IMG/VR virus record: IMGVR_UViG_3300045988_179273
Reading direction: 5' to 3' (one strand)
DNA length: 47,334 nt
Source of the DNA: a virus
The position numbers were made by a program, and so were the translations under genes. The notes under the pieces were generated by a model. The model did not search any database, was not told where the DNA came from, and saw nothing but the letters and a program-made list of their open reading frames with translations. This document shows positions 1,433 through 45,751 of this stretch, piece by piece (the first letter of the stretch is position 1; every line of letters starts with the position of its first letter).

Positions 1433-2632
1433 ATGAAAATTACACAGAAAACTCTTGCCGAATTGCCTGAAGGCATTCACCTGATTGAGGAAAACTTTTA
1501 CATCCGAGTTCGTGGAAATAAGCGGTACTTCTTCTTTGCTTACCGGAAAGACGGACGCAGAAAAGAAATCGGACTCGGCGGCATCAAGCGAACGTCGTTT
1601 GCTCTTGCCAGAGAAAAAGCAACGAAGCTCCGGCTGGACCTCATGAGCGGTAAAGAGCCATGCCTGGAAGAAAAGCCTGTTGCGTCCGGACGGACTTTCA
1701 ACGAGATCTATAAGGAAGCCATTGCGACTACGGATGACGTCAAGCGCTGGAAGAATGAAAAGCATCGGCGTCAATGGTATTCGTCAATTGAGACCTACGC
1801 CTGCCCGATTATCGGGAAGAAGAGAATTAATGAAATTAAGCGCGACGATATCATCGCCGTTTTAAAGCCAATTTGGACCACAAAGAACGAAACGGCCGCT
1901 CGCGTTCGCTCTCGTTTAGAGCGCATCTTTTCTTACGCAATCTTCAAGGGCGAGTATTCCGGACCGAACCCGGCCGTGTACCGTGACAATCTTGAAATGG
2001 TTTTTGCGCCCAAAGCCAAAGTCCGTGCCGTTAAGCACATGGAGGCTTTGACGCTACAAGAGGCTCAGCGATACGTTGCCTATGGTGTTGCATCGGGGAC
2101 GATGGGGCATCTGGCGACTGTCTTCGGGATGCTGACGGCGTTGCGTGCCAATGAATTTATTCGGGCACGATGGGAAGAGATTGACTTAGATAATGCCTTG
2201 TGGATCGTTCCGCCGGAGCGACGAAAGATTGCCCGAGACTTCCCGATGCGAGTTCCGCTCTCGGAGCAGGCGTGCGCTGTTCTAAAGCACCTAGCACAAA
2301 CCCTTAAGGGTAAACCCGTAGGGTATGTCTTTTATAGTGAAACGGCTGCCAGCGGACACATTTCTCTGGAAACCCCGAGGATAATGCTGAGAAAGGTCTT
2401 GAAGCGCTCCGTCACAATGCATGGCTGTCGGAGCACCTTCCGAGATTGGGCCGAGGAAACAGGGCAAAACCCGACGGCAACGGAGCGCTGTTTAATGCAT
2501 GAAGAACCAAACAAAACGACGCGGGCCTATCAGCGCAGCGACCTGTTAGAAAAAAGGCGTCCACTCATGCAAGCATGGGCAGACGCCATTTTCCCGAAGG
2601 TTTTAATTAAACTAATTCAAGAACCGACGTAA
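1433..2632 (+). CDS. int: Tyrosine integrase (P4-like, with N-terminal arm-binding-type region)
   Basis: 399-aa ORF. C-terminal catalytic pattern: LTALRANEF (Arg), HGCRSTFRDWA (His-x-x-Arg), TRAYQRSD (Tyr). The N-terminus IHLIEENFYIRVRGNKRYFFFAYRKDGRRKEIGLG resembles phage-integrase arm-binding domains. Confidence 0.9.
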   Translation: MKITQKTLAELPEGIHLIEENFYIRVRGNKRYFFFAYRKDGRRKEIGLGGIKRTSFALAREKATKLRLDLMSGKEPCLEEKPVASGRTFNEIYKEAIATTDDVKRWKNEKHRRQWYSSIETYACPIIGKKRINEIKRDDIIAVLKPIWTTKNETAARVRSRLERIFSYAIFKGEYSGPNPAVYRDNLEMVFAPKAKVRAVKHMEALTLQEAQRYVAYGVASGTMGHLATVFGMLTALRANEFIRARWEEIDLDNALWIVPPERRKIARDFPMRVPLSEQACAVLKHLAQTLKGKPVGYVFYSETAASGHISLETPRIMLRKVLKRSVTMHGCRSTFRDWAEETGQNPTATERCLMHEEPNKTTRAYQRSDLLEKRRPLMQAWADAIFPKVLIKLIQEPT

Positions 2633-5264: not shown

Positions 5265-5897
5265 TTAAACCTCCCGCGATTTAATCACATTCGGGATGCG
5301 CTTCTCTCGGCGATGCATTGAAGATTCTGCGTCAAGGTTTTTTGCCCGAGAAAGGGCGCTTTCGTAGAGTTTGAGTAAGTTCTGACCAGCCTGACTCGTT
5401 GTGTCAGCACGCTTGACAGGTCCATATAGATATGTTGCCAACAGTGGAACAAGGCAATCGATGAAATATCCAGGAAACAATTCGGGCGTTTCAACGTTGA
5501 CGATATACGTCAGCACAGGGTCTTTGATGTCGGTAAAGAGCGCACGCCTGGCGTTCTTATCAACGATGGCCATTTCATACGCATAGAAACGCTCAGGGCG
5601 ATTCTCGGAAAGGTCTTCGTAGGATTGAAGGTTCAGAATCTTCAGGCAGTTGGACGGGATTGCGAATGCGTGGTCTTTGCCGTACAGACGAGCGTCAACG
5701 TTGCTCATTTCCGTCGGGCGGACACGTAGCGTTGCAAAGGACCAGCCGTGGCGTTCAAGAACGGTGCGCAATGCAATCGGATACCATTTGGCACAGTGCC
5801 CGGCCTGTACGCCTTCCGGCGGATTAATGGAAGTGACTTCGGCGGAATCCCCTAGCAGAGAAAGCGCCATGTTGCAGATATCAACTGAGGATGCCAT
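5265..5897 (-). CDS. Head-tail adaptor / tail tubular A-like protein
   Basis: 210-aa ORF between the decoration-like and nozzle-like genes. N-terminal DICNMALSLLGDS motif recalled from podovirus adaptor proteins. Assignment is by position and motif only. Confidence 0.5.
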   Translation of the reverse strand: MASSVDICNMALSLLGDSAEVTSINPPEGVQAGHCAKWYPIALRTVLERHGWSFATLRVRPTEMSNVDARLYGKDHAFAIPSNCLKILNLQSYEDLSENRPERFYAYEMAIVDKNARRALFTDIKDPVLTYIVNVETPELFPGYFIDCLVPLLATYLYGPVKRADTTSQAGQNLLKLYESALSRAKNLDAESSMHRREKRIPNVIKSREV

Positions 5898-5973
5898 TTT
5901 CTTATTTCCAAAAAGAAGGGGGAGCGGTTTGACCGTTCCCCCAGTGCGTTACTTTAACTAAGGAAAATGTGAA

Positions 5974-6402
5974 TTAGTCGATTGTCGCAAGGATGTCGTA
6001 ACCGACGGCCTTGATGTTGCGAACAAGCTCAAATTCATTGTGCAAAACAGCCTTAACCAGCGTGCCTGCAACCGTGTTGGAATCCGTGGCCGTGACGGTC
6101 GTAGCCAAGCGCACATAGCGCTTATGTTGCAAGGGCAACGGAATGGCCATGTTTGCCGGAATCTTGCCAGCAGTCAGCGTGAACGAAACCGCGTCCGTGA
6201 AAGTGGAATTGTCGTCCGAGTCCTGAATCTTGAACGTCACAGAGCCGGCTCCCGCTGCGTCTTTTGTAAAGAGCAGCGCATAGAACGGGGGCTTTAAAGC
6301 ACCCAATCCAGGCTTTTCCTGACCAAGGTCAACCGCCGTGCCGGTAACCGTCGTGCCGAGTCCTTTGTTCTCGGCTAAAGAAAGCAATTCGTCGTAAACC
6401 AT
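5974..6402 (-). CDS. Small capsid decoration/cement-like protein
   Basis: 142-aa ORF immediately downstream of the major capsid gene, with SD ggagga. Beta-rich composition. Resembles the Bbp16-type cement protein position in BPP-1-like heads (recollection only). Confidence 0.45.
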   Translation of the reverse strand: MVYDELLSLAENKGLGTTVTGTAVDLGQEKPGLGALKPPFYALLFTKDAAGAGSVTFKIQDSDDNSTFTDAVSFTLTAGKIPANMAIPLPLQHKRYVRLATTVTATDSNTVAGTLVKAVLHNEFELVRNIKAVGYDILATID

Positions 6403-7495: not shown

Positions 7496-8242
7496 TTATC
7501 GACTGTGATAAATATCTGATGCCGTGAAAGTTTCTTTGCCGCCGGCGTTCCCGCGAGGGAAACCGGCTTCGCCGAATGCTTTCCCGGCTCGTGCCAGAAG
7601 CTTCAAAACTCCAGGATGGTTTCCGGCAGGGGAACTCATGAATTCCGCGATGTCGGGGTCAACCTTCCCGTTAGAGTCGTAGGCGAACTTGTCACGCAGG
7701 CGGGCGATATCGCTCAAGTGGTCCGCAATTTCCGGACATGCTTTCGATTTCTCGGCCCACTCTCTGGACACGTTCTGGATTGTTTCGACCTGTCGCTGGG
7801 CCATTAACGGGGCCAGCTCATCGATAACGCCCTGCGCCTTTTCCTGGCTTAGATTGAGCTTCTTAGCTACCTCACCGAATTGGTTCATGACGGCACCATC
7901 AAGCCGTACCCCTTCGGGTGCTTTAAATGCCTCATATTTCTCCGGGGCGCCTTCATCGGAGGGCTTGTCGGCACCATCCTTTTTGTCGCCTTCCGGGGCT
8001 TCGCCTTCTTCGGCTGTTTTGCCCTGAGCGTCTTGCTGGTCAGAGCTTTCTTTGGCACCATCTTCCGGGCCCTTGTTGACGGCGCTATCTAAAAGCGTCG
8101 CAGGAGGGTTGGTCGCAGGCGCAGCTGTCTTGTCGGACGGCTGAGTCTGTGCCGGAGCGGAAGGCGCCGGATTCTGTACACTCGGTGTGCCGGTATCGTT
8201 TGAATTTTCAGCCGGCGTCGTTGTGTTTAATGCGTCTGTCAT
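7496..8242 (-). CDS. Scaffolding protein
   Basis: 248 aa. Low-complexity P/A/E/K-rich N-terminal half and helical C-terminal half. Lies directly upstream of the capsid gene. Confidence 0.6.
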   Translation of the reverse strand: MTDALNTTTPAENSNDTGTPSVQNPAPSAPAQTQPSDKTAAPATNPPATLLDSAVNKGPEDGAKESSDQQDAQGKTAEEGEAPEGDKKDGADKPSDEGAPEKYEAFKAPEGVRLDGAVMNQFGEVAKKLNLSQEKAQGVIDELAPLMAQRQVETIQNVSREWAEKSKACPEIADHLSDIARLRDKFAYDSNGKVDPDIAEFMSSPAGNHPGVLKLLARAGKAFGEAGFPRGNAGGKETFTASDIYHSR

Positions 8243-8534
8243 GGCTTTCCTTAAGCAGTAATTGATAGGAAACCGGGTCGCAGAGACTTAAGAGACTCAG
8301 GCCCACAGAGCGCCGCCCTTCGTTAAATCCCATCGTGAGGGCATTTGTTGAAAAGGACGGCTGGTTAAGCCCTGTAATGTCAAGAATGATTTCCATGGCC
8401 CGACGGCCTTCAGGCGTGGCCATTACGTAAGCAATGGACTTCCTGATTGCGCGGAGCTTTTGCTCATCCTTTTCCGCTTTCTCAGCAATGGCAGCTTCGA
8501 GCGCGGCCTGGTCAAATGGGTCTCTGTTACTCAT
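8208..8534 (-). CDS. Hypothetical head-operon protein (first gene of the minus-strand structural operon)
   Basis: ORF 8208..8588. Internal ATG 8534 (MSNRDPFDQAALE...) is preferred, but neither start has a good SD. Overlaps the scaffold gene by 35 nt. Confidence 0.5.
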   Translation of the reverse strand: MSNRDPFDQAALEAAIAEKAEKDEQKLRAIRKSIAYVMATPEGRRAMEIILDITGLNQPSFSTNALTMGFNEGRRSVGLSLLSLCDPVSYQLLLKESHDRRIKHNDAG

Positions 8535-8647
8535 GGCGGAAATTTTTTCAAGCGAAAATAGGGATATGGGCACAGGGGGTGTGCGCATGAGTTGACTTTG
8601 GCGGTGGAAAATGCTTGCAACTTTTGATAAAGGAGCGTTTGCAGGCT

Positions 8648-9736
8648 ATGGCTATCGGATACATCAAGCGCGTTGCTGGGCCGTTTACGGGGGCCGGCAC
8701 AACGTCTCTACCATTCGGATTTCTTGTCTATAAGCCCCAGGACGTTTATGTCGCCTTGGCCGCGTCTGATATTGCCGAGGCTACGAATCTTGAGTACGGT
8801 ACTGATTACACGGTTGTTTTGAATGCTGACCAGGAGACAACTCCCGGTGGTACGGTGACGCTTACGACGGCTTTGACAGAAGGACAAGTCGCAGCGGTTG
8901 GTTCTGCGCTGGATTACACGCAGCCGACACAGCTTACGAATTTCTCGCGTTTTCCTCCGGAAATCATCAATGATGCACTCGATCGCATCGTGATTCTGAT
9001 ACAGCAGCTACTTGAAAGGTTAGGACGAACGGTTACGGTTCCGGTTACGTCTAGCCAAACTCCGGAAGAGCTTGTTGAGTCGCTACAGAAGGCAGCCGAA
9101 TCTGCCGAGAAAGTGGCATCCGCATATGCGGCCCAAGCCGGCACAAGTGCAGCAGCGAGCGCTGCCTCCGCCACGCTTGCCGAGCAATGGGCCACCAAAA
9201 CCGACGGCAAGGTTCAGGACATCGACTACAGCGCAAAGCACTACGCTTTGGATGCCAGGCAAACCGCAGCCGAGTTACCTGCCAAAGAGCTTGAGTTGGA
9301 GGCGCAGTTAACCGCCCACACGGATACACAGATTGCACGCATTGACGATAAGACAGATGCCGTGCTGGCGGTCAACGCAACGGGGTGCGCAGAGAAGACG
9401 TGGACGCTTACTGCTGACGTTGCGGCCAATACCGAAATCACGATTCCGGGCGGAATCTACTACGTTGTAGGCCGTCACCATTTGCGAGTCGGGTACAACG
9501 GCTTGACGTGCTACATCGGCAGCAATTTCGTTGAGGTCGGGAACACGGACACGAAATCCAACAAATTCAAATTGACCTTTGATGCGAAGTCGGGCGATGA
9601 GCTTGACGTCTGGGTTGCAGCGCTCGGCAAGGCGGATGTGGCGGATGCAATCAATACCGCGCAGGCTGCCAACGATGCGGTTGCAGAACTGAGCCAGAAG
9701 GTTGTTTACAAAGATGCTGAATCGGCAGGGAGTTAA
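8648..9736 (+). CDS. Tail fibre / tail-associated protein
   Basis: ORF from 8615; first ATG at 8648 after aaggag. N-terminal beta region, then the Ala-rich helical stretch AEKVASAYAAQAGTSAAASAASATLAEQWA typical of fibre shafts. First gene of the plus-strand fibre cluster. Confidence 0.6.
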   Translation: MAIGYIKRVAGPFTGAGTTSLPFGFLVYKPQDVYVALAASDIAEATNLEYGTDYTVVLNADQETTPGGTVTLTTALTEGQVAAVGSALDYTQPTQLTNFSRFPPEIINDALDRIVILIQQLLERLGRTVTVPVTSSQTPEELVESLQKAAESAEKVASAYAAQAGTSAAASAASATLAEQWATKTDGKVQDIDYSAKHYALDARQTAAELPAKELELEAQLTAHTDTQIARIDDKTDAVLAVNATGCAEKTWTLTADVAANTEITIPGGIYYVVGRHHLRVGYNGLTCYIGSNFVEVGNTDTKSNKFKLTFDAKSGDELDVWVAALGKADVADAINTAQAANDAVAELSQKVVYKDAESAGS

Positions 9737-9742
9737 TACATC

Positions 9743-10714
9743 ATGGCGAACTTAGTTGAGACAACACTTTATTCTCATGAAGGTGCAACAAACACGCCTC
9801 TTGCGCCTGCGACCAAAGCGACGCAGGTGCAGATTGCGAACGTTGAAGGGCAAGCGTCTAATGTGGAGTCGGAAATCGTTGCGCTCCGCACAAAACTCAA
9901 TCAGGCGATTGACGCAGGCGTTCACTTCCGTGGCGCAGTCAATTCGACAACGCCATTGCCGACCGTTGCATACAAAGCAGGCTGGCAGTACATCGTGGGC
10001 GAGGCAGGCACATATGCCGGCAACGTGTGCGAGGCGGGCGACTACATCATCTGCGTGAAGGACTACGCAAGTGGGAGCGCATCCGATTCGGATTGGACTG
10101 TCTTGCAGAAAAACCTTGACGGTGCAGTGACAGGACCGTCAACGAGTGTTGCCAATCACGTGGCCGTGTTCGATGGCACAGGTGGCTCGAAGATTAAGGA
10201 CAGCGGTTTCACAATCGGGAAGAGTGTTCCTGCGGATGCGCAATTTACGGACACACAGTACAAGCCTGCGACCGATAAAGCCGATGGCTTAATGACGGCT
10301 GCGCAGTACACAAAACTTGCAGGCATCGAGACGGGTGCAGACAAGACTGACGCTGACAATGTGGAGGCAGCAGGTGCTTTCATGAAGGCTACGGACAATT
10401 TGGACTCCGTGGCTGACAGCACGACCTACGTGAAGATGAAAGCGACCGAGCGCACGAAGCTCGAAGGCGTTGCGACCGGCGCTGAAGTCAATCAGAACGC
10501 TTTCGCAAAAGTGAAAGTGGGCGAGACAACCATTACCGCAGGTGCAAAGCAAGACACACTGGAGATTGAAGCGGGCGAGGGCGTGACGATTACGGCCAGT
10601 GGCAAGAAGGTCACGATCAAAGAGACATACATCGATTCGTGCGTTGTCAGCTCTTTGGACAACGTACCTGCGAATCTGCGCAATGGTGGCTTGATCATCT
10701 TGAAGGATGCCTAA
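9743..10714 (+). CDS. Tail fibre-like protein
   Basis: 323-aa ORF with repeated T/D/K-rich segments (KADGLMTAAQYTKLAGIETGADKT..., ERTKLEGVATGAEVN) and a DGAVTGPSTSV..VAVFDGTGGSKIKDSG motif seen in fibre proteins. Confidence 0.55.
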   Translation: MANLVETTLYSHEGATNTPLAPATKATQVQIANVEGQASNVESEIVALRTKLNQAIDAGVHFRGAVNSTTPLPTVAYKAGWQYIVGEAGTYAGNVCEAGDYIICVKDYASGSASDSDWTVLQKNLDGAVTGPSTSVANHVAVFDGTGGSKIKDSGFTIGKSVPADAQFTDTQYKPATDKADGLMTAAQYTKLAGIETGADKTDADNVEAAGAFMKATDNLDSVADSTTYVKMKATERTKLEGVATGAEVNQNAFAKVKVGETTITAGAKQDTLEIEAGEGVTITASGKKVTIKETYIDSCVVSSLDNVPANLRNGGLIILKDA

Positions 10715-10854
10715 TGTTGACTGAACTTCGTCAGGTGCTTAAAGACCCAATCTCTAGAAAGTTTTTCTGGAAGGGCGTTCGAGACGGTTTGGTTATCGGA
10801 TGCCTAATCATGCTTCCGGCCTTCCTTATCGTTTGCTTGAGGGTTTTTGAATGA
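10714..10854 (+). CDS. Small membrane protein (46 aa)
   Basis: ATG 10714 overlaps the upstream TAA (TAATG), and the stop overlaps the next ATG (ATGA). Hydrophobic segment VIGCLIMLPAFLIVCL. Confidence 0.45.
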   Translation: MLTELRQVLKDPISRKFFWKGVRDGLVIGCLIMLPAFLIVCLRVFE

Positions 10855-11360
10855 CTGACAGCCTGTACGTCAAAACAGCGGGCGGAATCCTCCCGATTGC
10901 CATCGAGGGCACGGGAGGGAGCGGTGGCTCTACGACGATTGAAGCGGAGACGCACACGATAACGGAGACGGCAACGAGTGCGCAGTCGTACTCGATTGGC
11001 AATTGCGCCTACGTGATGGTTTTCGTGAATTCTGTCTTAGGTGTGGACGGCGTGACCTATGGCATCACGGGCGGGACGACGTTGCAGTTTACCGACGTGA
11101 TTCCTGTTGGTAGTGAGGTTGTCATCGTCAAATTCAAGACCGCAGGGAGCGTCACGCCGACACCGACGTATGCGATTGACAGCGCGCTGTCTGCGACTTC
11201 GACTAACGCGGTACAGAACAGGGTGGTGAAGGCGGCGATTGACGGAAAGGCGGACGAGGCGCAAGTAAACGAAATCTTGAGTCCGCTAAACACGAAGGTC
11301 ACGAGTTTACAAGCGTCAATTGATTCGGCTTACGCCAAATATGTTGCGGAGATTAGGTAA
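10851..11360 (+). CDS. Tail fibre protein (short)
   Basis: 169 aa. Contains the fibre motif DSALSATSTNAVQNRVVKAAIDGK, which recurs in the 12910 gene (DSALSSTSENPVQNKVITSALDGK). Confidence 0.6.
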   Translation: MTDSLYVKTAGGILPIAIEGTGGSGGSTTIEAETHTITETATSAQSYSIGNCAYVMVFVNSVLGVDGVTYGITGGTTLQFTDVIPVGSEVVIVKFKTAGSVTPTPTYAIDSALSATSTNAVQNRVVKAAIDGKADEAQVNEILSPLNTKVTSLQASIDSAYAKYVAEIR

Positions 11361-11874
11361 TGGCGACATTAGAAGAAATGGTGGATAAAGCAATACAAGT
11401 AGCCGTGTTACGGGCACATCCCGTCGGGAGTTACTTCATCACGGAATCCGCCGACAACCCTCACGAAATTTTAGGGGGGGGGTATGGCAAAAATTGGAAG
11501 GGCGATTCCTGCTCGGCGCAAATGCGTCGTACTCCATTGGAAGTGAGGGAGGCGAGGATATGCACACACTGACAGAGAACGAATTGCCATCGCATACACA
11601 CGACGCAACGATTAAAGCGTTCACGTACAACGGTAACAAGATTCAGTTTTTCAATGCCGCGAGCGCAAATAAAGGTGGCTCGTGGTATGGAGACTCGGAG
11701 TTTTCAATCGCGGCGGCGCGAAAGCTGAACGGAACGTCTGGCGTTCAGCACGTCCTAACCGAAGCGAACTTAATTACACGTAAAGCAATTGATACGGCAA
11801 ATACAGGTGGTGGCGCATCCCACAACAATATGCCGCCCTACCGAGCCGTGAACATTTGGAAGAGGACAGCGTAA
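11360..11874 (+). pseudogene. Tail-collar-type fibre gene split by a frameshift at a G9 tract
   Basis: The upstream frame ends ...AHPVGSYFITESADNPHEILGGG. The next frame continues VWQKLEGRFLLGANASYSIGSEGGEDMHTLTENELPSHTH...GGGASHNNMPPYRAVNIWKRTA, together one tail-collar-type protein. G10 or G7 would restore a single ORF of about 171 aa. Confidence 0.8.
11474..11482 (+). repeat. Homopolymeric G9 tract at the frameshift point
   Basis: Counted directly: ttaggggggg|gg = 9 consecutive G. Confidence 0.95.
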
Positions 11875-12320
11875 TGGCTACGTTTGAAGAGACAATCGAG
11901 AAGGCTGTTCAGGCGGCGGTCAAGAGGGCAAACGCTTATACCGATACGAAGGTCGGGGCATTGCCTCGAATCCCTCATATTTATGCCACAACGATGGTCG
12001 GTCTCGGCTTCACCAAAGGCGCAACGGTATCCGTCAAAGACTTCCTGTTGGCGCTTTACAACCAGGGCTACCAAGCAGGCGACATTGTCTCGTTCGGCTA
12101 TCTGGACGCAGGCGCGGCCATTGTTTCCGACGGAACGAACACAATCAACATCAATTGCGTGGACGTAATCATCGGCACGCTTCAGAACTTAAACAACGCA
12201 TGGGCACGCGCTTCCGTCCTCGTGTTCGGGACGGGCTACGCAGGCAAATGCGCGCGCATCGGAGCGAGTACCGGCGGAACGGCAGGCACGTTATTCGTTG
12301 GTGAAGTGCAGAACTTATAG
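11874..12320 (+). CDS. Fibre-cluster protein sharing the N-terminal module of the preceding gene
   Basis: ATG 11874 overlaps TAA (TAATG). N-terminus MATFEETIEKAVQAAVKRANA versus MATLEEMVDKAIQVAVLRAHP at 11360. Confidence 0.6.
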   Translation: MATFEETIEKAVQAAVKRANAYTDTKVGALPRIPHIYATTMVGLGFTKGATVSVKDFLLALYNQGYQAGDIVSFGYLDAGAAIVSDGTNTININCVDVIIGTLQNLNNAWARASVLVFGTGYAGKCARIGASTGGTAGTLFVGEVQNL

Positions 12321-12331
12321 GAGATAGACAT

Positions 12332-12907
12332 ATGTCTGAAACAACTTACATCGGAACGCAATTCGCCAAGCCGTTGCAGAACGACAAGATTGAGCAAAAC
12401 ACAGGTACTGAAGAGTTACCGCGTTACGAACTTGTCGACAACCCTGCCCCGAACACGTATAAAAAGTATGCGGAAGCGGCGCAATGGTGCAACGAAGATG
12501 GCTGGGCGACGATTGAGGACAAGGGTGATTACTACGAAGTGGTTGCAATTCCTAAACCGCCCGAGCCAACAGCCGAAGAGATTGCCGAGCGAGAAGCGGC
12601 CGAGGCTCTTACGCAAGCCAAGAAAGAGCGAGCCGAGGCGGTGAGCAGGTTGACGGTTACGGTCGATGGCATGGTATTTGACGCAGACGAAACGAGCCAA
12701 AACCGTATGAGCCGTGTGGTCGCGGGTGCGCAGGCTCTTGGCATTGACCAAAGCACAACGCAAGTTTGGGTGCTGGCTGACAATACAGTGGCAACACCGA
12801 CCGTTGCGCAGTTAGCGCAGGCGCTGAAACTTGCGGGCGCAGCGCAGACAGCGCTGTGGACTGTCCCGTACCAGACCGAAACCGAAACGAACACCACCGG
12901 AGAATAA
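12332..12907 (+). CDS. DUF4376-like fibre-associated protein (possible fibre assembly/accessory protein)
   Basis: 191 aa with SD aggag. C-terminal LTVTVDGMVFDADETSQNRMSRVV...VWVLADNTVATPTVAQLAQAL resembles the DUF4376 pattern found next to fibre genes (recollection). Confidence 0.5.
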   Translation: MSETTYIGTQFAKPLQNDKIEQNTGTEELPRYELVDNPAPNTYKKYAEAAQWCNEDGWATIEDKGDYYEVVAIPKPPEPTAEEIAEREAAEALTQAKKERAEAVSRLTVTVDGMVFDADETSQNRMSRVVAGAQALGIDQSTTQVWVLADNTVATPTVAQLAQALKLAGAAQTALWTVPYQTETETNTTGE

Positions 12908-12909
12908 TC

Positions 12910-13800
12910 ATGGCATTCCCGAAACTACTACAAAAACTTTTCCAGAACAATGGAGCGGGGGACAAACTCAATCCCGACATCATCCCCGACATCCCGTACT
13001 CCAAAGTCACCGACGCGCCTTCCGTTGATTCTGCGCTCTCGTCTACGAGCGAGAACCCTGTTCAGAACAAAGTTATCACCTCCGCCCTTGATGGGAAATT
13101 AAGTACAAGTGGCGGTACAGTTAACGGTCCGGTAACAATCGCTAGTACAATTACCACTAGCGAGTTAGCAAGACCCGCCGGGGTGAAAGAGTTCTATATA
13201 CGGGGCAAAGATGATGACGGATGCCTTCAGCTCTATCCCGGGGGGACTTCCAGTTTTTCCGCTAAGAAAACTGCCTCGCTTCTTCTAACTACTATAAACT
13301 ACACTGGCATCTCAATCCCTGCGGGGTCGTTCTATTTAAATGCTATGGATGCCACTACAGGGGCAAAGTCGCTTGTAGGCTCACCCAACGGCACATTGTG
13401 GTGGTGCGGAAAGAGTCTCACGGGAGGGCTAACCGTCGTCGCCGAGTCCTACAGCGCTAACTCCTGGTACCGCAAATACTCCGACGGGTGGATTGAGCAG
13501 TGGGTGCTTACGCCACAAGTGAGTTTTACAAGTTGGAATCAGACGAAAACGTGGGTTACATTCCCTGTCGCTCTTACATCCACCTTTTATTGGACAATTG
13601 CTGGTAATCGCCAAACTTCATATAGTAGCTATTACAGCCAAGAATCGGGTGATTCAGGCGTTGATACCTATAAAGGCTTAGTTACGCTTACCGTTAATAA
13701 AACAGGGATAACAGGTAAATCCTCATGGCCATCAGGGTCAGACCACTACAATACTGTTACTTTGCCTGCAAACGAATGGCTTTACGTATTCGGCAAATAA
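12910..13800 (+). CDS. Tail fibre with switchable C-terminal receptor-binding domain (expressed orientation)
   Basis: ATG 12910 after ggaga. Fibre motif DSALSSTSENPVQNKVITSALDGK. C-terminal SANSWYRKYSDGWIEQ... domain. The coding sequence contains the left inverted repeat at 13455-13500. Confidence 0.75.
   Translation: MAFPKLLQKLFQNNGAGDKLNPDIIPDIPYSKVTDAPSVDSALSSTSENPVQNKVITSALDGKLSTSGGTVNGPVTIASTITTSELARPAGVKEFYIRGKDDDGCLQLYPGGTSSFSAKKTASLLLTTINYTGISIPAGSFYLNAMDATTGAKSLVGSPNGTLWWCGKSLTGGLTVVAESYSANSWYRKYSDGWIEQWVLTPQVSFTSWNQTKTWVTFPVALTSTFYWTIAGNRQTSYSSYYSQESGDSGVDTYKGLVTLTVNKTGITGKSSWPSGSDHYNTVTLPANEWLYVFGK
13455..13500. repeat. Left inverted repeat of the invertible fibre segment
   Basis: cgctaacTCctggtaccgcaaatactccgacgggtggattgagcag equals the reverse complement of 14065-14110, except for 2 nt (TC vs AG, both Ser codons). 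The core 13464-13500 is 37/37 identical. Confidence 0.95.
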
Positions 13801-14130
13801 CTACTTGCCACAGGCATATATCTCATAGGCAAAATAATCATAAGATGGGAAGTAAGTGCCGATGTTTATACCTGTAGTGGTTTTACTAAAGCTAGTGTAT
13901 TGTATTTCGTCAGGTAGACTTTCATCGCCAGAAGACATGTTATATGTTTTTAAACTTGATGCGACTTTGGCATCACAAGCAAAATATTGAGTATTGGAGA
14001 ACGCTAGGGGAAATGAAAGCATTACGTAATTAGTGCCTTTTGCCTTGAATGAGCCACTAATACCCTGCTCAATCCACCCGTCGGAGTATTTGCGGTACCA
14101 GCTGTTAGCGGGGCCGTTTTCGGAAAGCAA
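13801..14130 (-). other. Silent alternative fibre C-terminal cassette (no ATG, no SD)
   Basis: The minus-strand frame is preceded by TAA and opens ...ENGPANSWYRKYSDGWIEQGISGSF...YEIYACGK*. It shares ANSWYRKYSDGWIEQ with the expressed gene. Its stop abuts the stop of 12910..13800 exactly (13800|13801). Confidence 0.75.
14065..14110. repeat. Right inverted repeat of the invertible fibre segment
   Basis: Reverse complement matches 13455-13500 (44/46; 37-nt perfect core 14065-14101). Confidence 0.95.
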
Positions 14131-14196
14131 TTAACTTGCTGATGATTCAAACAGAAGCTAAACTCCACTCTGACTCAATAGAGGGGAGGGGTTTGC

Positions 14197-14595
14197 ATGA
14201 AAAAGTATCTTTTCAGCAGTTTCGCCTTGTGCGCAGCATTGGCTTTAGTTGGATGCCAAGCGCCGTACACAAACAATATGCCTGCGCCGCAGGAAACGAC
14301 GCTAGGCACAGTACAGAAAGCCATCCACAAGGGCATGACGCAGGACGAAGTGGTTGCAGAACTCGGCGCGCCCAACATGGTCAGCCGAGATAAGGAAGGT
14401 CTTGAGGTTTGGGTTTATGACAAGGCAAGCACCACCGTGACTACTTCCGGCTCGTCTTCCTACGGCACGCTGATTTTAGTCGGAGCATCGGCTCATCAAT
14501 CGGCTAGCTCGATTTCCCAGAAATCGCTCACGTTGATTTTGAAATTCAAGGACGCTGTTCTGTCCGAATACTCGTATCGCTACTCAACTTTCTAA
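14197..14595 (+). CDS. Lipoprotein (moron)
   Basis: SD gaggggagggg. Signal peptide with lipobox MKKYLFSSFALCAALALVGC. The mature part (GMTQDEVVAELGAPNMVSRDKEGLEVWVY) looks like a BamE/SmpA-OmlA-type fold. Confidence 0.75.
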   Translation: MKKYLFSSFALCAALALVGCQAPYTNNMPAPQETTLGTVQKAIHKGMTQDEVVAELGAPNMVSRDKEGLEVWVYDKASTTVTTSGSSSYGTLILVGASAHQSASSISQKSLTLILKFKDAVLSEYSYRYSTF

Positions 14596-14607: not shown

Positions 14608-15107
14608 ATGAAAAAACTTTGTTTCCTTGCGCTAGCTGTTCCGATGTTGTTCACGGGGTGCGTGACTGTTGCGTGACTGTTGATTCTGTCTTTGGTGAAG
14701 CCGATGCTCCGGTTTCGGCCGTTGCGTTACAGGCTTTGCAAACACGCGAGTTTAATGCGACGCAAGATCAAGCATTTCAATCTGTTATCTCTACGTTCCA
14801 AGACTATGGTTATGTGGTTACGTCTGCAGACAAAGCGACCGGCTTAATCATGGGCAAGACGACTTCCGATGCGACAATCAGTGGCTTCACAGGGATTACA
14901 CGTGTTGAGTACAACAAGGCATCTGCCTTTATTGAACAATTAAGCGCGAACAAGGTAAAGATTCGCGTGAGCATTGTTAAGTACGTTTCAGCAACAGGGG
15001 CTTATGGCGGAGGAGGAGAGAAGGAAGTGGTTCGCACGAAGCCGCAGGTTTACCAAGACATCTTCAACAAAATTGAGCAGTCGCTTTTCTTGAAAAAGAA
15101 TCTCTAA
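14608..15107 (+). pseudogene. Second lipoprotein gene, frameshifted by an 11-bp tandem duplication
   Basis: ATG 14608 (SD gggag) gives MKKLCFLALAVPMLFTGCVTVA, then stop at 14674. Deleting one copy of tgcgtgactgt joins it in frame to VTVDSVFGEADAPVSAVALQ... (ORF ending 15107), giving about 162 aa. Confidence 0.8.
14659..14682 (+). repeat. 11-bp perfect tandem duplication (tgcgtgactgt x2, plus tg)
   Basis: Read directly: ggg tgcgtgactgt tgcgtgactgt tgattc. Confidence 0.95.
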
Positions 15108-15137: not shown

Positions 15138-15226
15138 CGCTATCCCCTACAACGTGAAGATGAGGAAAGGAAGTAAAGAGACGTCTCGGCCAGCTATAAG
15201 CCTTTGCTCAATTGGAGGAATCTAAA

Positions 15227-15613
15227 ATGTATGAAGTTTTTGGTTTCTTTGCGTTTGTTGCCTGTTTTGCGACTTACGGCATTTTGAAGGCGCTTTATAA
15301 GTATGCTGAAGATTTTTATTACTTTGATAACGATGGAGACGTAGCGAATTGGATTGTCGACGGACTCTTCGTTATCGGGATGATTGCTCTGAAATTGGTT
15401 TTGAACCCTCATGGCGACTTTTCGCCGATTACTATCGTCAGATTGGTTTTGATAGGTTATTTCTTTTCGGGAACATTTTCAATCGTCTCGTACTTTTGCC
15501 ATGGAAGAATTCCTGCCAGCCGTTTCTGGGCATTCGCATTCCGTTGGAATTCTCTAAGATTAGTAGCCTTTGTTCTCCTGTACTCTGTAGTTTTTATCGT
15601 TCTTTTTCAGTAG
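15227..15613 (+). CDS. Polytopic membrane protein (moron)
   Basis: ATG 15227 after ggaggaatctaaa. 128 aa with about 4 hydrophobic segments (VFGFFAFVACFATYGIL, LFVIGMIALKLVL, IVRLVLIGYFFSGTFSIVSYF, LVAFVLLYSVVFIVLF). Confidence 0.65.
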   Translation: MYEVFGFFAFVACFATYGILKALYKYAEDFYYFDNDGDVANWIVDGLFVIGMIALKLVLNPHGDFSPITIVRLVLIGYFFSGTFSIVSYFCHGRIPASRFWAFAFRWNSLRLVAFVLLYSVVFIVLFQ

Positions 15614-15713: not shown

Positions 15714-15838
15714 TGTTGGGCGAACTCTTAAAGTACCCCCGAAACGAACTTTAATTTGACCCCCTTGGGAGTCAAAAAATGGGGAAACTAAGAGATCAAA
15801 CACATAATGAGGGTTTCCATTTCAAAAGGAGACCCGAC

Positions 15839-17056
15839 ATGCTTCCACTCGAAGCTATCAACAGAATTCGGGTACTCTCAGAACGGGGCATGGGATCCAA
15901 AGCGATAGCCAAATCAACGGGGATCTCGAGAAATACCGTTCGCAAGTACCTGTCTCACCTTCAGACACTAACGCCCATTTCTTCAGAGGTGCAACGCCCA
16001 AGTCGACTCGACTCTTTCCGAGATCAGATCCACGAGTGGTTCCTTGCTTGCAGAGGACATTGTCCGGTTGTACTGCGCAAGATTCAGAGTGAACTCGGGG
16101 TATCGATTAGCTTGCGACAGCTACAAAAGTACTGTCAGCCATGGCGTACTCAAGAGCTACACGTCAAAGAAATGACTCAGCGCTACGAAGTGCCTCCCGG
16201 GGATGAAATGCAAATTGACTTCGGGTTCGACGAAGTCTTAATCGCCGGAGTCAAGACTCGCATATGCGTGTTTGTTGCGGTGCTGAGCTACTCCAGAAGA
16301 GTCTTTGCCAAGCTGTATCCGGTGGAGAATCAGGCAGCCTGGTTAAACGGCATCGAATCCGCCTTTGAGTATTTCAGCGGTGTTCCCGTTGCTGTTGTCT
16401 CCGACAACACACGCTGTCTCGTTGACGGAAGAGCGGAACATGGCCAAACCATCTTCAACCGTCGCTATCTGCAGCTATCAAGGTATTGGCAATTTGTTCC
16501 GGTCAATTGCAAACCCTACAGAGCCAAGACCAAGGGCAAGGTTGAGCGCATGGTTGGTTACGTTAAAACGAGCTGTTTGTCCGGACTTGAGGCGCCTGAC
16601 CTTCATGATGCCCAGAAACAAGTTGATGCTTGGATGCGCATGGTTGCGGACGTGCGTCGCATTGATGGCTTGGAGGGACGCCCAATTGATCGATACCAAG
16701 CTGAGGTTATGGCATTAAAACCTTATATGGGTCCGAACTTGAGCCAACTAAGACTGGAAACGAGAAAGATAGATATCAGCGGTCGAATTCAAATTGACGG
16801 CGTACAGTACTTAATCCCTGGAACAGATGCCGGTACTGTCGTCGATGTTTTCATTGAGGAAGAAGCAATTGCGGTGTTTCTTCATGGTCAATGTATCACG
16901 CAACTGAACCGAACCGCTGACGCTTATCAAGCTAGCACATTTAAGCATCGACAGAAAGAAATTTGGGAGCCGGGCAATGTCCAAAGCAGTGGTCTGGATC
17001 GATCTTTAAGGGAGTACGACCGTTTTATTGAGGAGAACAGCCATGGCCGTTGTTAA
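15839..17056 (+). CDS. istA: IS21-family transposase IstA
   Basis: ATG 15839 after aaggag. N-terminal HTH (GMGSKAIAKSTGISRNTVRKYL). DDE-type core (EMQIDFG, VVSDN, KTKGKVER). Confidence 0.9.
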   Translation: MLPLEAINRIRVLSERGMGSKAIAKSTGISRNTVRKYLSHLQTLTPISSEVQRPSRLDSFRDQIHEWFLACRGHCPVVLRKIQSELGVSISLRQLQKYCQPWRTQELHVKEMTQRYEVPPGDEMQIDFGFDEVLIAGVKTRICVFVAVLSYSRRVFAKLYPVENQAAWLNGIESAFEYFSGVPVAVVSDNTRCLVDGRAEHGQTIFNRRYLQLSRYWQFVPVNCKPYRAKTKGKVERMVGYVKTSCLSGLEAPDLHDAQKQVDAWMRMVADVRRIDGLEGRPIDRYQAEVMALKPYMGPNLSQLRLETRKIDISGRIQIDGVQYLIPGTDAGTVVDVFIEEEAIAVFLHGQCITQLNRTADAYQASTFKHRQKEIWEPGNVQSSGLDRSLREYDRFIEENSHGRC

Positions 17057-17843
17057 GGCGATTTCCACTCAAGAGCTTGCGGCTTTGGCCAACCGGCTAC
17101 GCTTGACATTAATTCGTGACCGAATGGAAGAAATGTTGACGATGGCCGTGGACAAGAAGTTATCTCCAAGAGAAACTCTGGAATTCTTCTTTCGTCAAGA
17201 AATTCGGCGTCGAGAAGAAAATCGTATCCGACAAGCCATCATGGGGGCTCATTTTCCTGCAGTACGGACGTTGGAAGATTTTGATTTTGAGGCTCAACCA
17301 TCAATTGATGTGAAACAACTAAAAGAATTGGCACAACTCGAATGGGTTGGGCAGGCTAAAAATGTTCTTTTTCTCGGACCGCCGGGAGTCGGAAAGACTC
17401 ATTTGGCCATTGCATTGGGACGGGAGGCAATCAAACTGGGAATGAGTGTTGCCTTTTACTCTGCTGAAGAGCTTGGATCGTTGTTGGACAGGGCGCTAAA
17501 GGAAGGAACAATTAAACAAAAGCTGTATCAGCTTTCAAAACCAAAATTGCTAGTCCTTGACGAATTTGGCTATACGCCGTTTTCGTCAGTAAGTGCGCCA
17601 CTGCTGTTTCGGTTGATTAACAGCCGATACGAACAGAAAAGCATACTGATCACCAGCAACAAGCCCGTTTCCGAGTGGGCCGGCGTGTTGGGGGATGCAA
17701 CCCTGACAACTGCTATGCTGGACAGATTGTTGCATCACAGTGAAATCATCGTGATTCGCGGAGACAGCTACCGTCTCCTGGAGAAACGAAAGGAAGGACT
17801 TTTAACCTCAGCCAGGGCTGTTGGTACAGCTTTGACTGATTAA
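17043..17843 (+). CDS. istB: IS21-family helper ATPase IstB
   Basis: ATG 17043 after gaggag, overlapping the istA end. Walker A GPPGVGKTH, Walker B LLVLDEFG. Typical IstB/DnaC-like length. Confidence 0.9.
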   Translation: MAVVKAISTQELAALANRLRLTLIRDRMEEMLTMAVDKKLSPRETLEFFFRQEIRRREENRIRQAIMGAHFPAVRTLEDFDFEAQPSIDVKQLKELAQLEWVGQAKNVLFLGPPGVGKTHLAIALGREAIKLGMSVAFYSAEELGSLLDRALKEGTIKQKLYQLSKPKLLVLDEFGYTPFSSVSAPLLFRLINSRYEQKSILITSNKPVSEWAGVLGDATLTTAMLDRLLHHSEIIVIRGDSYRLLEKRKEGLLTSARAVGTALTD

Positions 17844-40058: not shown

Positions 40059-43000
40059 ATGTTTCTTGAGCAGGTTTTTAATCCGTTAGAAAACCGTCCG
40101 ACTCCCTCGAAAGAGGAGATTGATACCTCGTTTGACAATTTCTACGGTAAGGGCGAGCGTCCGTTGGCGTTGCCTGATGACATGTCAGGACAGTACAACA
40201 CACAGCTTTCTCCGGATGAAGAATCTGCCTATCAGGCGTGGGCAAAAGGACAGGGGCGAGAAAAGGACGTTTTTAATTACGACCTGCGCGGCGCATGGAA
40301 AGAACTCCAATCGGGAACGATGAGCGAAGACGAACGCGGGCATTTAGGTGATAAGTACAAAAAGCCGAATCACCCGACGTTTAGCACCGAATCCATTTAC
40401 AACGGCAAAGACGGCTATCAGGGCGGAGTTTGGAGCAGAAACGGAAACGTTGATGTCTATACGCCTCAGCACAAATTGACGCCGGAGCAGGCCAAACGCT
40501 TAAAGCTTTATTTCGCGCAGAATGAAGAAGGCGTGGCTCTTAACCTGAAAGACAAGGTTTACGACAATCCAACAATTCAATTGGCCCCGAAGTCCGTCGG
40601 TGCATTCGACGGGCTTGCGAAGGGAATTCTGTATCCGATTCCTAACGCCTTGGTCCGGATGGGTTCTGGTGCTCTCATGGTGGCGTCAAAAGCGATGCCG
40701 TGGGTGCGTGATGACTTCTTAAAACAGATGGAGCAGGCATCTCTCGATTTGGACAAGTGGAATCGTGCGAATTTTGGCGCGAATCCGGAAACTATGGGCA
40801 AGGCAACGCAGGTTATTCATGGCCTCGTAGGGATGCTTGCCGAATTGGGAGTGCTCACGACGGGAGTAGGCGGAGCGGCAGGCCTCGCGATTAAAGGAGT
40901 CGGCGCAGCAGAGAAACTTCGCAAGACGTCCATTGCCGTCGGCTCAGCCTTGTTCGGTACTGATATAGGAATTTCGGAGCGTAATCGTCTTGTGGCCGAA
41001 GGGGTGGATGAGGATACGGCATTTAAAGCAGGCGCTGTTTCTGGCCTTCTCAACACAATTGGCGCAGCAATTCCTCCGTTCTTAGGCAGCAGCCGTACTT
41101 GGTCAGCCTTGTACGGTGCCGGCAGTAACGTAGCCTTGAACTATGCCGAGCTCTCAACCATTTCCTACGTTCTGGATCATCAGGATTACACGGAGCTTGC
41201 CAAGCAGTATGAGCTGAACATGGTCGATATGCTTGTCTCAGCAGGCGTGGGCGCATTTATGGGAACCGTCTTTTGGCGTAATCCGGTTGATGTTAAGTAC
41301 GACCGAGCATACCAACGTGTTTACGAGCGCTACAAGTTAGACTTGGAAGCCGGTGGGAAATTCTCTCAAGAAAAGATTGATTCAGAAGCGAAAATCAATG
41401 CGGCCTCGGTGGTTTCGTATGCTCGAATGATCCATATCGCACCGGACCAAGTTGATGACCTGGCTGCGAAAATCGTCTGGACTGACGACAGAAAGGCGTT
41501 CTCGGTGCCAGAAGAATACGCCATGCCGATTACGCAGGGCAGTGAGTGGCATATGGGGCCGTCTCCGAAGCGAAATGCAGAAGAGCAGATACCTGTCTTG
41601 AAAATTACAGAAGCTCCGCTTGGAAGAAAAGATGCGATTGCTTATACGACGGCCATTCTAAAGGACGGCGTGAAAAACAAAGACAGCGGATTTGTTCTCA
41701 CTGCCTCCCGCAGCGATATGAAGAAGGCTGCAGGCGAAAGAGGAGGATTGAAAGAAAGAGTATTCACCTCGGTGGCTAAAAATATCGACAAAATAGCCGA
41801 AAACTCTGTCTTAGTTGAGAGTCACGTAGATGTTAAACATCGGAATCCTAATGTTCAAGGGGTACATATTTTTGCTATGCCTGTTGAATTTGATGGTTCC
41901 TTCTGGCGAGTTCAATTGTTGGTGAAGGATGTTATTGAGCCTGGGAATGAAAAAACAGCAGTTCACACGATTGACGGAATCGAAATCCATAAAATGGAAA
42001 ACCCGCCCGTTGGGATAACCCAATCGGAGGGCGGGGTTTCTTACGTCGCTGGGGTCGCGGCCGCGGACAACCGACAAGTCCACAATGTCACCGATAATGT
42101 TCCCAACGACCGTACTGTTAGTTTATCCCAATTACTTGGCGGTGACAAGCCCTACATTCGCCAAGACGGAAAAGGATTCTTTGATTCGGTGGACGACGCT
42201 TCCCGCGCGGAAGGGGGTGTGTACTATGAGCCGCGTGAATACAACCAAATCATTGGCGAATATGGGGTCAGCGTCATGGATCAAGCTGACGAGAATTGGT
42301 CGCGCACAAACAACAGAAATGTCGCGTTGCAGATGGAATATTCTGGAAAAACGCCAAAAGAAATTCGTTTGGCAACCGGATGGGAACGCGGAGCCGACGG
42401 CAAATGGCGTTATGAAATTCCAGACATCAAGATTCGAGAAGACGGCTTCCGAATGTTACGTGATCGCGAGAAGGCAATCCGTGACAAGAAAGATGATTGG
42501 GCGTATTCGGACGAGGGCATAAATGCCTCGATTGAGGAGGGTAAAAGCCACGAAGCGGCCATAGATAGCGCACACGAGAGCGACGTATTGACTACAACGC
42601 TCGATAAGCTTGTCGATGCTCCGGATCTCTTCAAGGCATATCCTCAATTGCGAAAGATGACAGTCGAGTTCGGCAAACTGCCAAAAGGAACCGGTGGTTA
42701 TCTTTCGCTCGGAACAATGACAATGCGTCTTGGCCTTGATGCCGGAGTCTTTGCCAATTCGACTCGCTCGACTCTTATTCACGAAATTCAGCACGCCGTT
42801 CAGGAAATTGAGGGGTTCGCGCGCGGAGCTGACCCTAAGCGCATGCCTGGCAAGGGCGACGCTCTTTTCATTGACATGCAGCGGTTGCGGGAATTGCGAG
42901 GAAGTTCTGATTGGCGAGAGTATCAGGAAGCCGCAGATGAGATGCTGCGCCAGAGTGAAGCAGAAACAATGGATGACGCAGCGTGGAAACGTGCGACTTC

Positions 43001-45749: not shown

Positions 45750-45751
45750 TC

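Follow-up and report, generated by a model that had tools for sequence, protein, structure and literature searches.

A length-variable poly-G tract in a small tail-fibre tip gene of a gut Sutterella phage family, probably a slipped-strand switch

How can a phage gene be out of frame in many of the genomes that carry it and still keep its coding sequence? The question is raised by a run of nine G residues (G9) in a viral genome of 47,334 nucleotides (nt), IMG/VR record IMGVR_UViG_3300045988_179273, the whole of which was analysed and is called the window below. The run divides a small tail-fibre tip gene into two reading frames. We consider it likely that this run is a hypermutable simple-sequence tract, that is, a contingency locus, whose changes in length would turn the full-length tip protein ON and OFF. 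An earlier note on this DNA had proposed such a slipped-strand ON/OFF tract in a receptor-binding fibre gene, and the proposal is supported by the lengths of G6 to G11 found in relatives, by intact open reading frames (ORFs), by the ratio of nonsynonymous to synonymous substitution rates (dN/dS), and by a homopolymer that is never interrupted.

Tract length, reading frame, and selection

The sequence at the site is TTA-GGGGGGGGG-TATGG, and the tract comprises exactly nine G residues at 11474-11482. The ORF that starts at ATG 11360 passes through the tract as ...HPVGSYFITESADNPHEILGGG (...NPHEILGGG) and ends after 70 amino acids (aa), and the -1 frame across the junction reads (V)WQKLEGRFLLGAN...NNMPPYRAVNIWKRTA and ends at 11872-11874. 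The features of the locus are listed below.

11474..11482 (+): poly-G tract (G9), a hypervariable element; in an in-frame allele it codes for Gly39-Gly40-Gly41 and the first base of Val42
11360..11572 (+): OFF-state ORF (G9) of 70 aa, made of 41 native N-terminal and 29 out-of-frame residues, with TGA at 11570-11572
11483..11874 (+): C-terminal 130 codons of the fibre-tip gene in the -1 frame, VWQKLEG...SHTH...NNMPPYRAVNIWKRTA, with TAA at 11872-11874
11560..11874 (+): ORF of 104 aa from an internal ATG, reported by gene callers for OFF alleles (P0011-P0023 and many cluster members)

A tract of G10 gives a single 171-aa ORF and a tract of G7 gives one of 170 aa. The out-of-frame products have 69 aa (G6), 70 aa (G9), and 61 aa (G8), and G11 shares the frame class of G8. 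Sequence and frame reading thus confirm two statements of the earlier note, that G9 at 11474-11482 joins two frames of one gene and that G10 or G7 restores a protein of about 171 aa where G9 leaves 70 aa. No other G or C homopolymer in the window reaches a length of 7. Its mere occurrence is not significant, as at least one G9 or C9 appeared in 14 of 100 dinucleotide-preserving shuffles (mean, 0.22). The element not due to chance is the position of the tract exactly at the frame junction of an otherwise intact gene, together with its conservation in relatives. No second contingency-like tract was found among the other tandem repeats of the window.

Is the length of the tract fixed in this phage family? 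DNA of relatives was fetched through an exact-protein look-up and with a pattern of the two flanks that left the gap free. The protein search recovered full-length homologues of 169 to 171 aa with 76% to 92% identity; it also recovered many 104-aa proteins that equal the C-terminal part from the internal ATG, indicating that the gene is broken in those contigs too. About 30 independent contigs carry an uninterrupted run of G6 to G11 at the same site. The flanks are identical within the close clade, and a few base differences set apart those of the more divergent L076-L079. The alleles are distributed over tract lengths as follows.

G6: L001
G7: L012, L080
G8: L002, L005 (identical to L014), L008
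G9: the window (identical to L171), L006, L010, L011, L015, L076 (identical to L077), L161-L170, L172 (identical to L174)
G10: L003, L004, L007, L013, L078, L079, L173
G11: L009

Of these loci, L172 comes from ERZ27281688 and L173 from SRR33789850. The tract persists in lineages down to ~71% nucleotide identity. The gene is in frame in 5 of 14 distinct strains, which were sampled blind to tract state by DNA pattern and integrase look-up. On the protein side, the ~101 listed members of ten protein clusters comprise 33 of the G10 type, 9 of the G7 type (one residue shorter), and 59 that are broken, and the exact 70-aa G9 product of the window is encoded on 22 contigs. Length also varies within a single allele type (5 or fewer differences in 516 nt), which has G6 in L001 and G8 in L002 and L008; the 90% protein cluster of this allele type holds 171-aa and 170-aa members as well. 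No near-isogenic genome pairs differing solely in tract length were found among these relatives, and near-identical alleles of the gene sit in mosaic flanks of ~90% to 92% identity.

Resetting the tract to G10 gives an ORF free of internal stops in each of the 35 alleles examined, 27 of which are out of frame as deposited. The dN/dS ratio is ~0.16 overall, 0.17 for OFF-OFF pairs, and 0.155 for ON-ON pairs, indicating that OFF alleles are not decaying. The tract was never interrupted in 17 distinct alleles: all three four-fold degenerate sites inside it are invariably G, whereas at invariant codons outside it 43 of 49 four-fold sites (88%) vary and only 6 are invariant (P of ~0.002 against the tract). 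Glycine codons elsewhere in the gene show no bias toward GGG. In ~160 distant homologues, the same FGG[TSV]W motif is written in mixed codons, with G runs of 2 to 5, suggesting that the homopolymer is derived and maintained. Together, these signatures point clearly to a switch that is maintained, not merely tolerated.

Slippage and its alternatives

What could keep a gene intact through so many frameshifts? The locus shares with contingency loci a long uninterrupted tract within an ORF and a length that toggles between full and truncated products; to these are added length polymorphism with an otherwise intact ORF, and purifying selection accompanied by upkeep of the tract. In the mechanism that we favour, slipped-strand mispairing at DNA replication would add or remove G residues. 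The replicating polymerase is probably that of the host, since no DNA polymerase was recognised among the annotated ORFs (nor was a reverse transcriptase or an invertase), and a large part of the slippage may take place in the prophage. G7 and G10 would be the ON lengths (170 and 171 aa), and G6, G8, G9, and G11 would be OFF, with a stop after 61 to 70 codons; the allele of the window is in the OFF state. Reversal would be easy, so that lineages would cross the OFF state and return, which would account for a coding sequence that stays intact and under purifying selection. Upon induction, progeny would vary in mounting this tip on the virion. If a module of ~19 residues at the N terminus of the protein is a docking helix, the switch would alter the tip occupancy of the fibre and hence adsorption and host range. 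From sequence comparison we infer slippage as the cause, reversibility within a population, presence of the tip on virions, the docking helix, and the effect on host range.

Several observations weigh against such a switch. The ON fraction of 36% to 42% lies near the one-third expected without selection on frame, and G9, an OFF length, is the commonest; there is no sign of ON being favoured in the sampled populations, which we regard as mostly prophages. Where identical strains were recovered from different samples, their tract lengths agree (the window and L171; L172 and L174), indicating that switching is too slow to scramble consensus sequences. In addition, the AlphaFold monomer model of the protein is only moderate, with a predicted local distance difference test score (pLDDT) of 66.6. 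We interpret the ON fraction near one-third as a sign that tract length drifts in the prophage, where the fibre gene would be silent, and that selection comes into play only at infection.

Four other explanations have to be set against slippage, and two of them, a homopolymer error and -1 recoding, had already been named in the earlier note; the comparison with relatives disfavours both. An error of sequencing or assembly would mean a true sequence of G10 and an unbroken gene. Errors are frequent in homopolymers of 9 to 10 bases, the names of several related contigs give a coverage of only 2 to 10x, and a single base separates G9 from the in-frame G10. An assembly slip is argued against by L171, a contig of 47,314 nt from a separately deposited European Nucleotide Archive (ENA) assembly, ERZ27229692, which matches the window at 100% identity across 9.6 kb and likewise carries G9, and an error is further disfavoured by the 70-aa G9 product being called on 22 contigs from many samples and different assemblies. 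The range of 6 to 11 goes beyond single-base mistakes around one true length, out-of-frame alleles outnumber in-frame ones among the ~101 members, and no other homopolymer-linked frameshift was seen in the window, though it offers no other G/C run of 7 or more. An error is hence very unlikely. Programmed recoding, which we regard as improbable, would make G9 the wild type and would yield the 70-aa and 171-aa products at a fixed ratio, either by -1 ribosomal frameshifting on G GGG GGG or by slippage of RNA polymerase. It would agree with G9 as the commonest length, and G GGG GGG has the formal make-up of a slippery heptamer. A recoding site would be expected to keep its sequence and frame, yet relatives have in-frame G7 and G10 as well as G8 and G11, which need +1 and not -1, and the slippery site and its frame vary from one relative to another. 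No stimulatory structure is predicted either: the fold of 11483-11580 reaches -23 kcal/mol with a z score of -0.34, and 71 of 200 shuffles fold as well or better. With both out-of-frame classes present and no stable structure downstream, a fixed -1 signal is unlikely, and the 29-residue tail of the 70-aa product is an other-frame reading of conserved DNA. Some leak of OFF alleles through transcriptional slippage is possible, as long homopolymers can provoke it, mainly runs of A/T.

Might the gene instead be dispensable and decaying, the tract a mere mutational hot spot, and OFF alleles dead-end pseudogenes, so that switching is not adaptive? An ON fraction of about one-third, as without selection on frame, would fit this explanation, as would the several other fibre genes of the phage, which may make the tip dispensable. 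A second lesion was found in none of the 27 broken alleles, however, and the dN/dS of OFF-OFF pairs (0.17) is indistinguishable from that of ON-ON pairs. One synonymous change would remove the liability, yet the three tract sites remain invariant down to ~71% identity against 88% varying elsewhere, and fibre genes in unrelated phage clades have variable tracts of a similar kind. Decay is therefore unlikely in our view. Split-gene expression assumes that ribosomes in the OFF state reinitiate at ATG 11560 and make a functional 104-aa fragment, acting alone or with the stub. Such a fragment could be made, because in both OFF frames the stop codon is no more than ~15 nt from this ATG (TGA 11544-11546 for the G8 type and TGA 11570-11572 for the G9 type) and a strong Shine-Dalgarno (SD)-like sequence, GAGGGAGG, lies ahead of it at 11545-11552; gene callers consistently report the 104-aa ORF. 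Conserved SEGGE codons account for the SD-like sequence, and the fragment lacks residues 42-67, including the invariant W43, G65, and E66 and the nearly invariant F50, L51, and G64. A functional split gene is thus extremely unlikely, and reversible slippage of the tract remains the explanation that we prefer.

The tip protein, its fibre cluster, and the phage

What kind of protein would be switched by the tract? The fused protein matches the Pfam family PF21939 (Gp10_C) over residues 19-170 and profile positions 5-139 of 139, with an E value of 1.5e-19 and a score of 71.8 bits against a cutoff of 27. This single domain spans the junction, and close homologues have precomputed PF21939 matches. 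Against the PDB, the family profile hits the T4 gp10 C-terminal domain (2FKK) at positions 10-56 only (E value, 6e-9) and a structural protein of phage SU10 (7Z47_I) at full length (E value, 9e-8). The AlphaFold model served solely as a check on the gp10-like assignment: Foldseek with this monomer of pLDDT 66.6 placed gp10 (2FKK and 2FL8) first among PDB entries, with an E value of ~2e-4 and a probability of 1.0 but a template modelling (TM) score of just 0.37, and T4 gp12 (1OCY) turned up only at an E value of 1.2. The label "tail-collar" given in the earlier note is loosely right but does not hold for the family itself, since the Pfam Collar profile (PF07484) is absent among matches at an E value of 0.01 or less; the domain is Gp10_C. 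Two full-length members of the same protein clusters carry the Joint Genome Institute (JGI) name "microcystin-dependent protein," which presumably indicates a related COG. Among cultured phages, the same domain forms the C terminus of "antireceptor" proteins of Lactobacillus delbrueckii phages (37% to 39% identity). The product of the poly-G gene is probably a small tail-fibre tip, a receptor-binding module; the receptor-binding role is suggested by the domain family and by the antireceptor annotation of homologues.

The gene has a conserved N terminus and a hypervariable middle. After the SHTH motif (~residues 80-150), at least four unrelated cassette types occur among alleles P0014, P0017, P0018, and L013, yielding products of 137, 140, 153, and 171 aa whose N- and C-terminal ends are constant. 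This arrangement suggests that, in addition to the poly-G switch, recombination exchanges the presumed receptor-binding surface.

The poly-G gene lies within a cluster of fibre genes, whose other members are as follows.

8615..9736 (+): tail fibre, first gene of the fibre operon; its N-terminal part matches the corresponding part of PHROG tail, tail-fibre, and tail-spike families (PHROG 1640 and related, residues 24-148)
9743..10714 (+): fibre-cluster protein of 323 aa; weak PHROG tail-fibre match, synteny kept in relatives
10851..11360 (+): upstream fibre-cluster gene, 169 aa; weak PHROG tail match
11874..12320 (+): downstream gene, 148 aa, candidate alternative tip; common N-terminal module, different C-terminal domain
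12332..12907 (+): DUF4376 tail-fibre-associated protein of 191 aa; Pfam PF14301 and a PHROG tail fibre protein family
12856..14130 (both strands): distal fibre gene to 13800 (+) and opposed alternative C-terminal cassette at 13801-14130 (-), with bracketing 46-nt inverted repeats

No promoter-like sites were found in 8200-14400, and the genes from 8615 to ~14130 form one block. The poly-G gene overlaps both of its neighbours as TAATG, its start with the upstream stop and its own stop with the downstream start; the upstream overlap suggests translational coupling. The N-terminal module of ~19 aa is common to the poly-G gene and the downstream gene (MATFEETIEKAVQAAVKRA versus MATLEEMVDKAIQVAVLRA). 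Its consensus in the poly-G gene and neighbours is M[AS]T[LFI]EE..[DE]KA[IV]..AV.RA, followed by differing C-terminal domains, and it is possible that the module serves as a common docking helix for interchangeable tips. In relatives, the downstream position is occupied by varied proteins of 148 to 171 aa, several with a weak Gp10_C match.

The same cluster had been described in the earlier note as containing an invertible fibre. The inverted repeat is real: two 46-nt copies, 96% complementary, lie at 13455-13500 and 14065-14110 and enclose 13501-14064. They sit inside two opposed fibre C-terminal coding segments, 12856-13800 (+) and 13801-14130 (-), which share ...NSWYRKYSDGWIEQ..., and inversion of the enclosed segment would give the distal fibre a different C-terminal stretch of ~100 residues. 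The repeat pair is kept in 8 related contigs, where it encloses segments of differing content. No invertase gene was found near the inverted repeats, and a flipped segment was seen in no relative; the three in which the segment has a homologue are all oriented as the window. It is plausible that, as the earlier note proposed, the poly-G tract would add a second and independent layer of variation beside an invertible fibre.

A few further genes follow on the 3' side of the fibre cluster. A lipoprotein gene at 14197-14595 (lipobox LVGC) belongs to a cluster in which one member is named "outer membrane protein assembly factor" and others occur on up to 56 contigs, the longest of 172 kb; it may be a lysogenic-conversion or superinfection-exclusion gene. 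Two small ORFs (14619-15107 and 15212-15613) come next, and farther downstream an IS21-family element (15779-17843; IstA of 425 aa and IstB of 271 aa) has inserted, whose IstA has no exact counterpart in the protein collection. As a clue to the host, the element was compared with plasmids, and the sole match, of 137 nt to an Acidithiobacillus istB, was uninformative.

To what kind of phage does the tip belong? One gene marks it as temperate.

1433..2632 (+): tyrosine integrase (Pfam)

Besides the integrase, the window encodes a CI-like repressor, replication genes, a terminase, a T7-type portal, a GP7 capsid protein, tail tubular proteins, a holin, and internal virion proteins that include a polyvalent protein of 1,896 aa. 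The portal matches PF12236 (E value, 3e-145) and the capsid PF20911. Best cultured matches of the portal include Bordetella phages BPP-1, BIP-1, and BMP-1 (43% identity), and the identical locus L171 has matches to PF21190 (Bbp16) and PF25181 (Bbp19). Judging from this gene content, the window is the complete genome of a temperate BPP-1-like podovirus. The 349-aa ORF at 16-1065 matches the C-terminal part alone of a virion structural protein family, and the identical contig L171 carries a gene of 842 aa after the 1,896-aa polyvalent protein. From its two end stretches (1-1065 and 40059-47334), the window therefore looks circularly permuted, complete, and cut inside that gene.

An integrated copy of the phage, L172, lies on an 87.8-kb contig with the same integrase, adjoining tRNA-Ser(TGA) and the chromosomal genes mltG, tmk, holB, and panC. 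Its tmk product is exactly that of the NCBI entry "dTMP kinase [Sutterella sp.]," indicating that the host is a gut Sutterella. Nucleotide comparison of 10800-12400 with GenBank phages gave no match and hence no close cultured relative. Among species-representative genomes, an exact-pattern scan gave no match and a protein-based scan returned only homologues of 40% identity or less and no host. Individual proteins of the phage belong to database clusters with between tens and hundreds of member sequences.

Known switches and poly-G tracts in other gut phages

How does this locus compare with switches already described? To our knowledge, repeat-slippage switches of phages have been shown mainly in receptor-binding genes of Campylobacter Fletchervirus and, recently, in non-fibre genes of T-even phages. 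Fletchervirus poly-G tracts of 7 to 11 in receptor-binding genes create subpopulations that have or lack the protein, as a later paper reports (Sorensen et al. 2021, Cell Rep 35:109214, via PMC12633550). The present locus resembles them in having a G homopolymer of ~7 to 11 in a receptor-binding or tail-fibre gene, a length that shifts the frame, and a proposed role in bet-hedging against variable host receptors. Fletchervirus phages are strictly lytic myoviruses of Campylobacter, a host rich in poly-G, whereas the window is a temperate BPP-1-like podovirus of Sutterella; the evidence there is experimental, and here it is comparative and metagenomic. Campylobacter phages are not among the listed best tblastn matches of the fused protein or the ten commonest host genera, Fletchervirus proteins not having been compared directly. 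In T-even phages, T2 agt and T4 rIIA are contingency loci with reversible homopolymer frameshifts caused by polymerase slippage, studied for evasion of host defences (Gomez, Barrick, and Waters, 2025 preprint, PMC12633550). The same preprint reports that repeats of 6 or more bases are under-represented in tail-fibre and other infection genes of coliphages. The likeness again lies in homopolymer repeats within phage ORFs and in slippage that diversifies progeny, but the T2 and T4 loci are non-fibre genes, and the G tract described here is much longer and conserved specifically in a fibre-tip gene.

In bacteria, slippage at repeats is a textbook strategy, and poly-G/C contingency loci are known in Neisseria, Haemophilus, Campylobacter, and Bordetella, the last of which belongs, like Sutterella, to the Burkholderiales. 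Phase variation at homopolymeric tracts in Bordetella pertussis is the subject of one report (PMC1891110). Bacterial loci and the tract of the tip gene have in common a homopolymer within an ORF, ON/OFF frameshifts, length polymorphism between close strains, an intact ORF, and an uninterrupted tract. The difference is that the tract lies in a phage structural gene, where selection would act on virions at infection and mutation may build up silently in the lysogen.

Temperate phages have other means of switching tropism, among them the diversity-generating retroelement of BPP-1 that acts on Mtd and the invertible fibre segments of Mu (G) and P1 (C). Such tropism-switching systems are cited as a class elsewhere (PMC12823448). 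Here, too, a temperate phage would vary its receptor-binding end, and a candidate invertible fibre cassette is present. Unlike mutagenic retrohoming or site-specific inversion, slippage of the tract would decide on the presence or absence of a tip. A further comparison is offered by the tail assembly chaperone G/GT of phage lambda, made by programmed -1 frameshifting with a conserved slippery site and frame relation. The two systems are alike in that overlapping frames of a tail gene are joined at a slippery run, but in the tip gene length and frame vary between strains, in-frame alleles are common, and no stimulatory structure was found.

A recent long-read paper on gut phages names poly-G tracts only as a possible host-range determinant. 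Searches of the literature turned up no such tract in a temperate gut phage, a Sutterella phage, or a Gp10_C-type tip. The class of mechanism is known, and the locus adds to it a member with unusually rich evidence from natural populations: a population-scale case in a common family of human-gut prophages in which ON and OFF alleles coexist. If the switch is confirmed, temperate gut phages can hedge their adsorption specificity by a cheap mutational device, it would be wrong to discard "frameshifted" fibre genes in viromes as errors or pseudogenes, and pipelines for annotation and host-range prediction should treat fibre genes split by poly-G as single switchable genes.

Is the tip gene of this family an isolated case? 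Fibre poly-G tracts are found in at least four unrelated clades, including phages of >100 kb and a Firmicutes prophage, several of them at Gly-Gly-(Val/Thr)-Trp of Gp10_C tips. We put forward only tentatively, as an idea that may well prove wrong, that poly-G tracts at Gly-Gly sites of fibres are a recurrent and convergent host-range switch of gut phages, pre-shuffled in the prophage and combinatorial with other tips and the invertible cassette. If this were true, replication of the prophage with the host chromosome would pre-shuffle the switch and each induction would release mixed ON and OFF virions; tips sharing one docking helix, together with an invertible cassette, would then give combinatorial variation of the tail fibre without a diversity-generating retroelement.

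One of these clades is a separate group of gut phages (contigs of 25 to 48 kb) with a variable poly-G at Gly-Gly-Val-Trp of a 170-aa Gp10_C paralogue. Its four alleles, all intact once normalised, are as follows.

In frame, G9: L133 7246-7254; L150 7244-7252
Broken, G10: L103 7244-7253; L136 2197-2206

About 690 nt upstream, the same clade has a second variable poly-G: G10 at 6559-6568 in L103, G9 at 6562-6570 in L133, and G8 followed by TG at 6559-6566 in L150. On one side of this tract is a short ORF (MNITNKTNLMQTQSDGGG) and on the other the N-terminal helix of a further tip paralogue; the two frames are joined by none of the three lengths but would be joined by G11.

Large phage contigs (~110 to 150 kb) have a poly-G at the VGGV junction of a tail-fibre gene, in an ON/OFF-like pattern.

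Continuous ORF of 368 to 395 aa, G8: L097 7755-7762; L132 7773-7780 (minus strand)
Split into ~217 + 155 aa: L090 7761-7769 (G9); L096 7765-7773 (G9); L088 7771-7778 (G8 then AGGG)

The Firmicutes prophage, L046, comes from a metagenome-assembled genome of Candidatus Gallimonas merdae and has tandem Gp10_C paralogues with G9 at 5495-5503 and G8 at 5973-5980. Both tracts lie near the N terminus (…LVM-GGG-…LLD), the G8 copy being in frame and the G9 copy apparently out of frame. Within the family of the window itself, the divergent relative L078 (76% protein identity) carries, on this single contig, an upstream paralogue with G8 at LGGVW (5683-5690), in frame.

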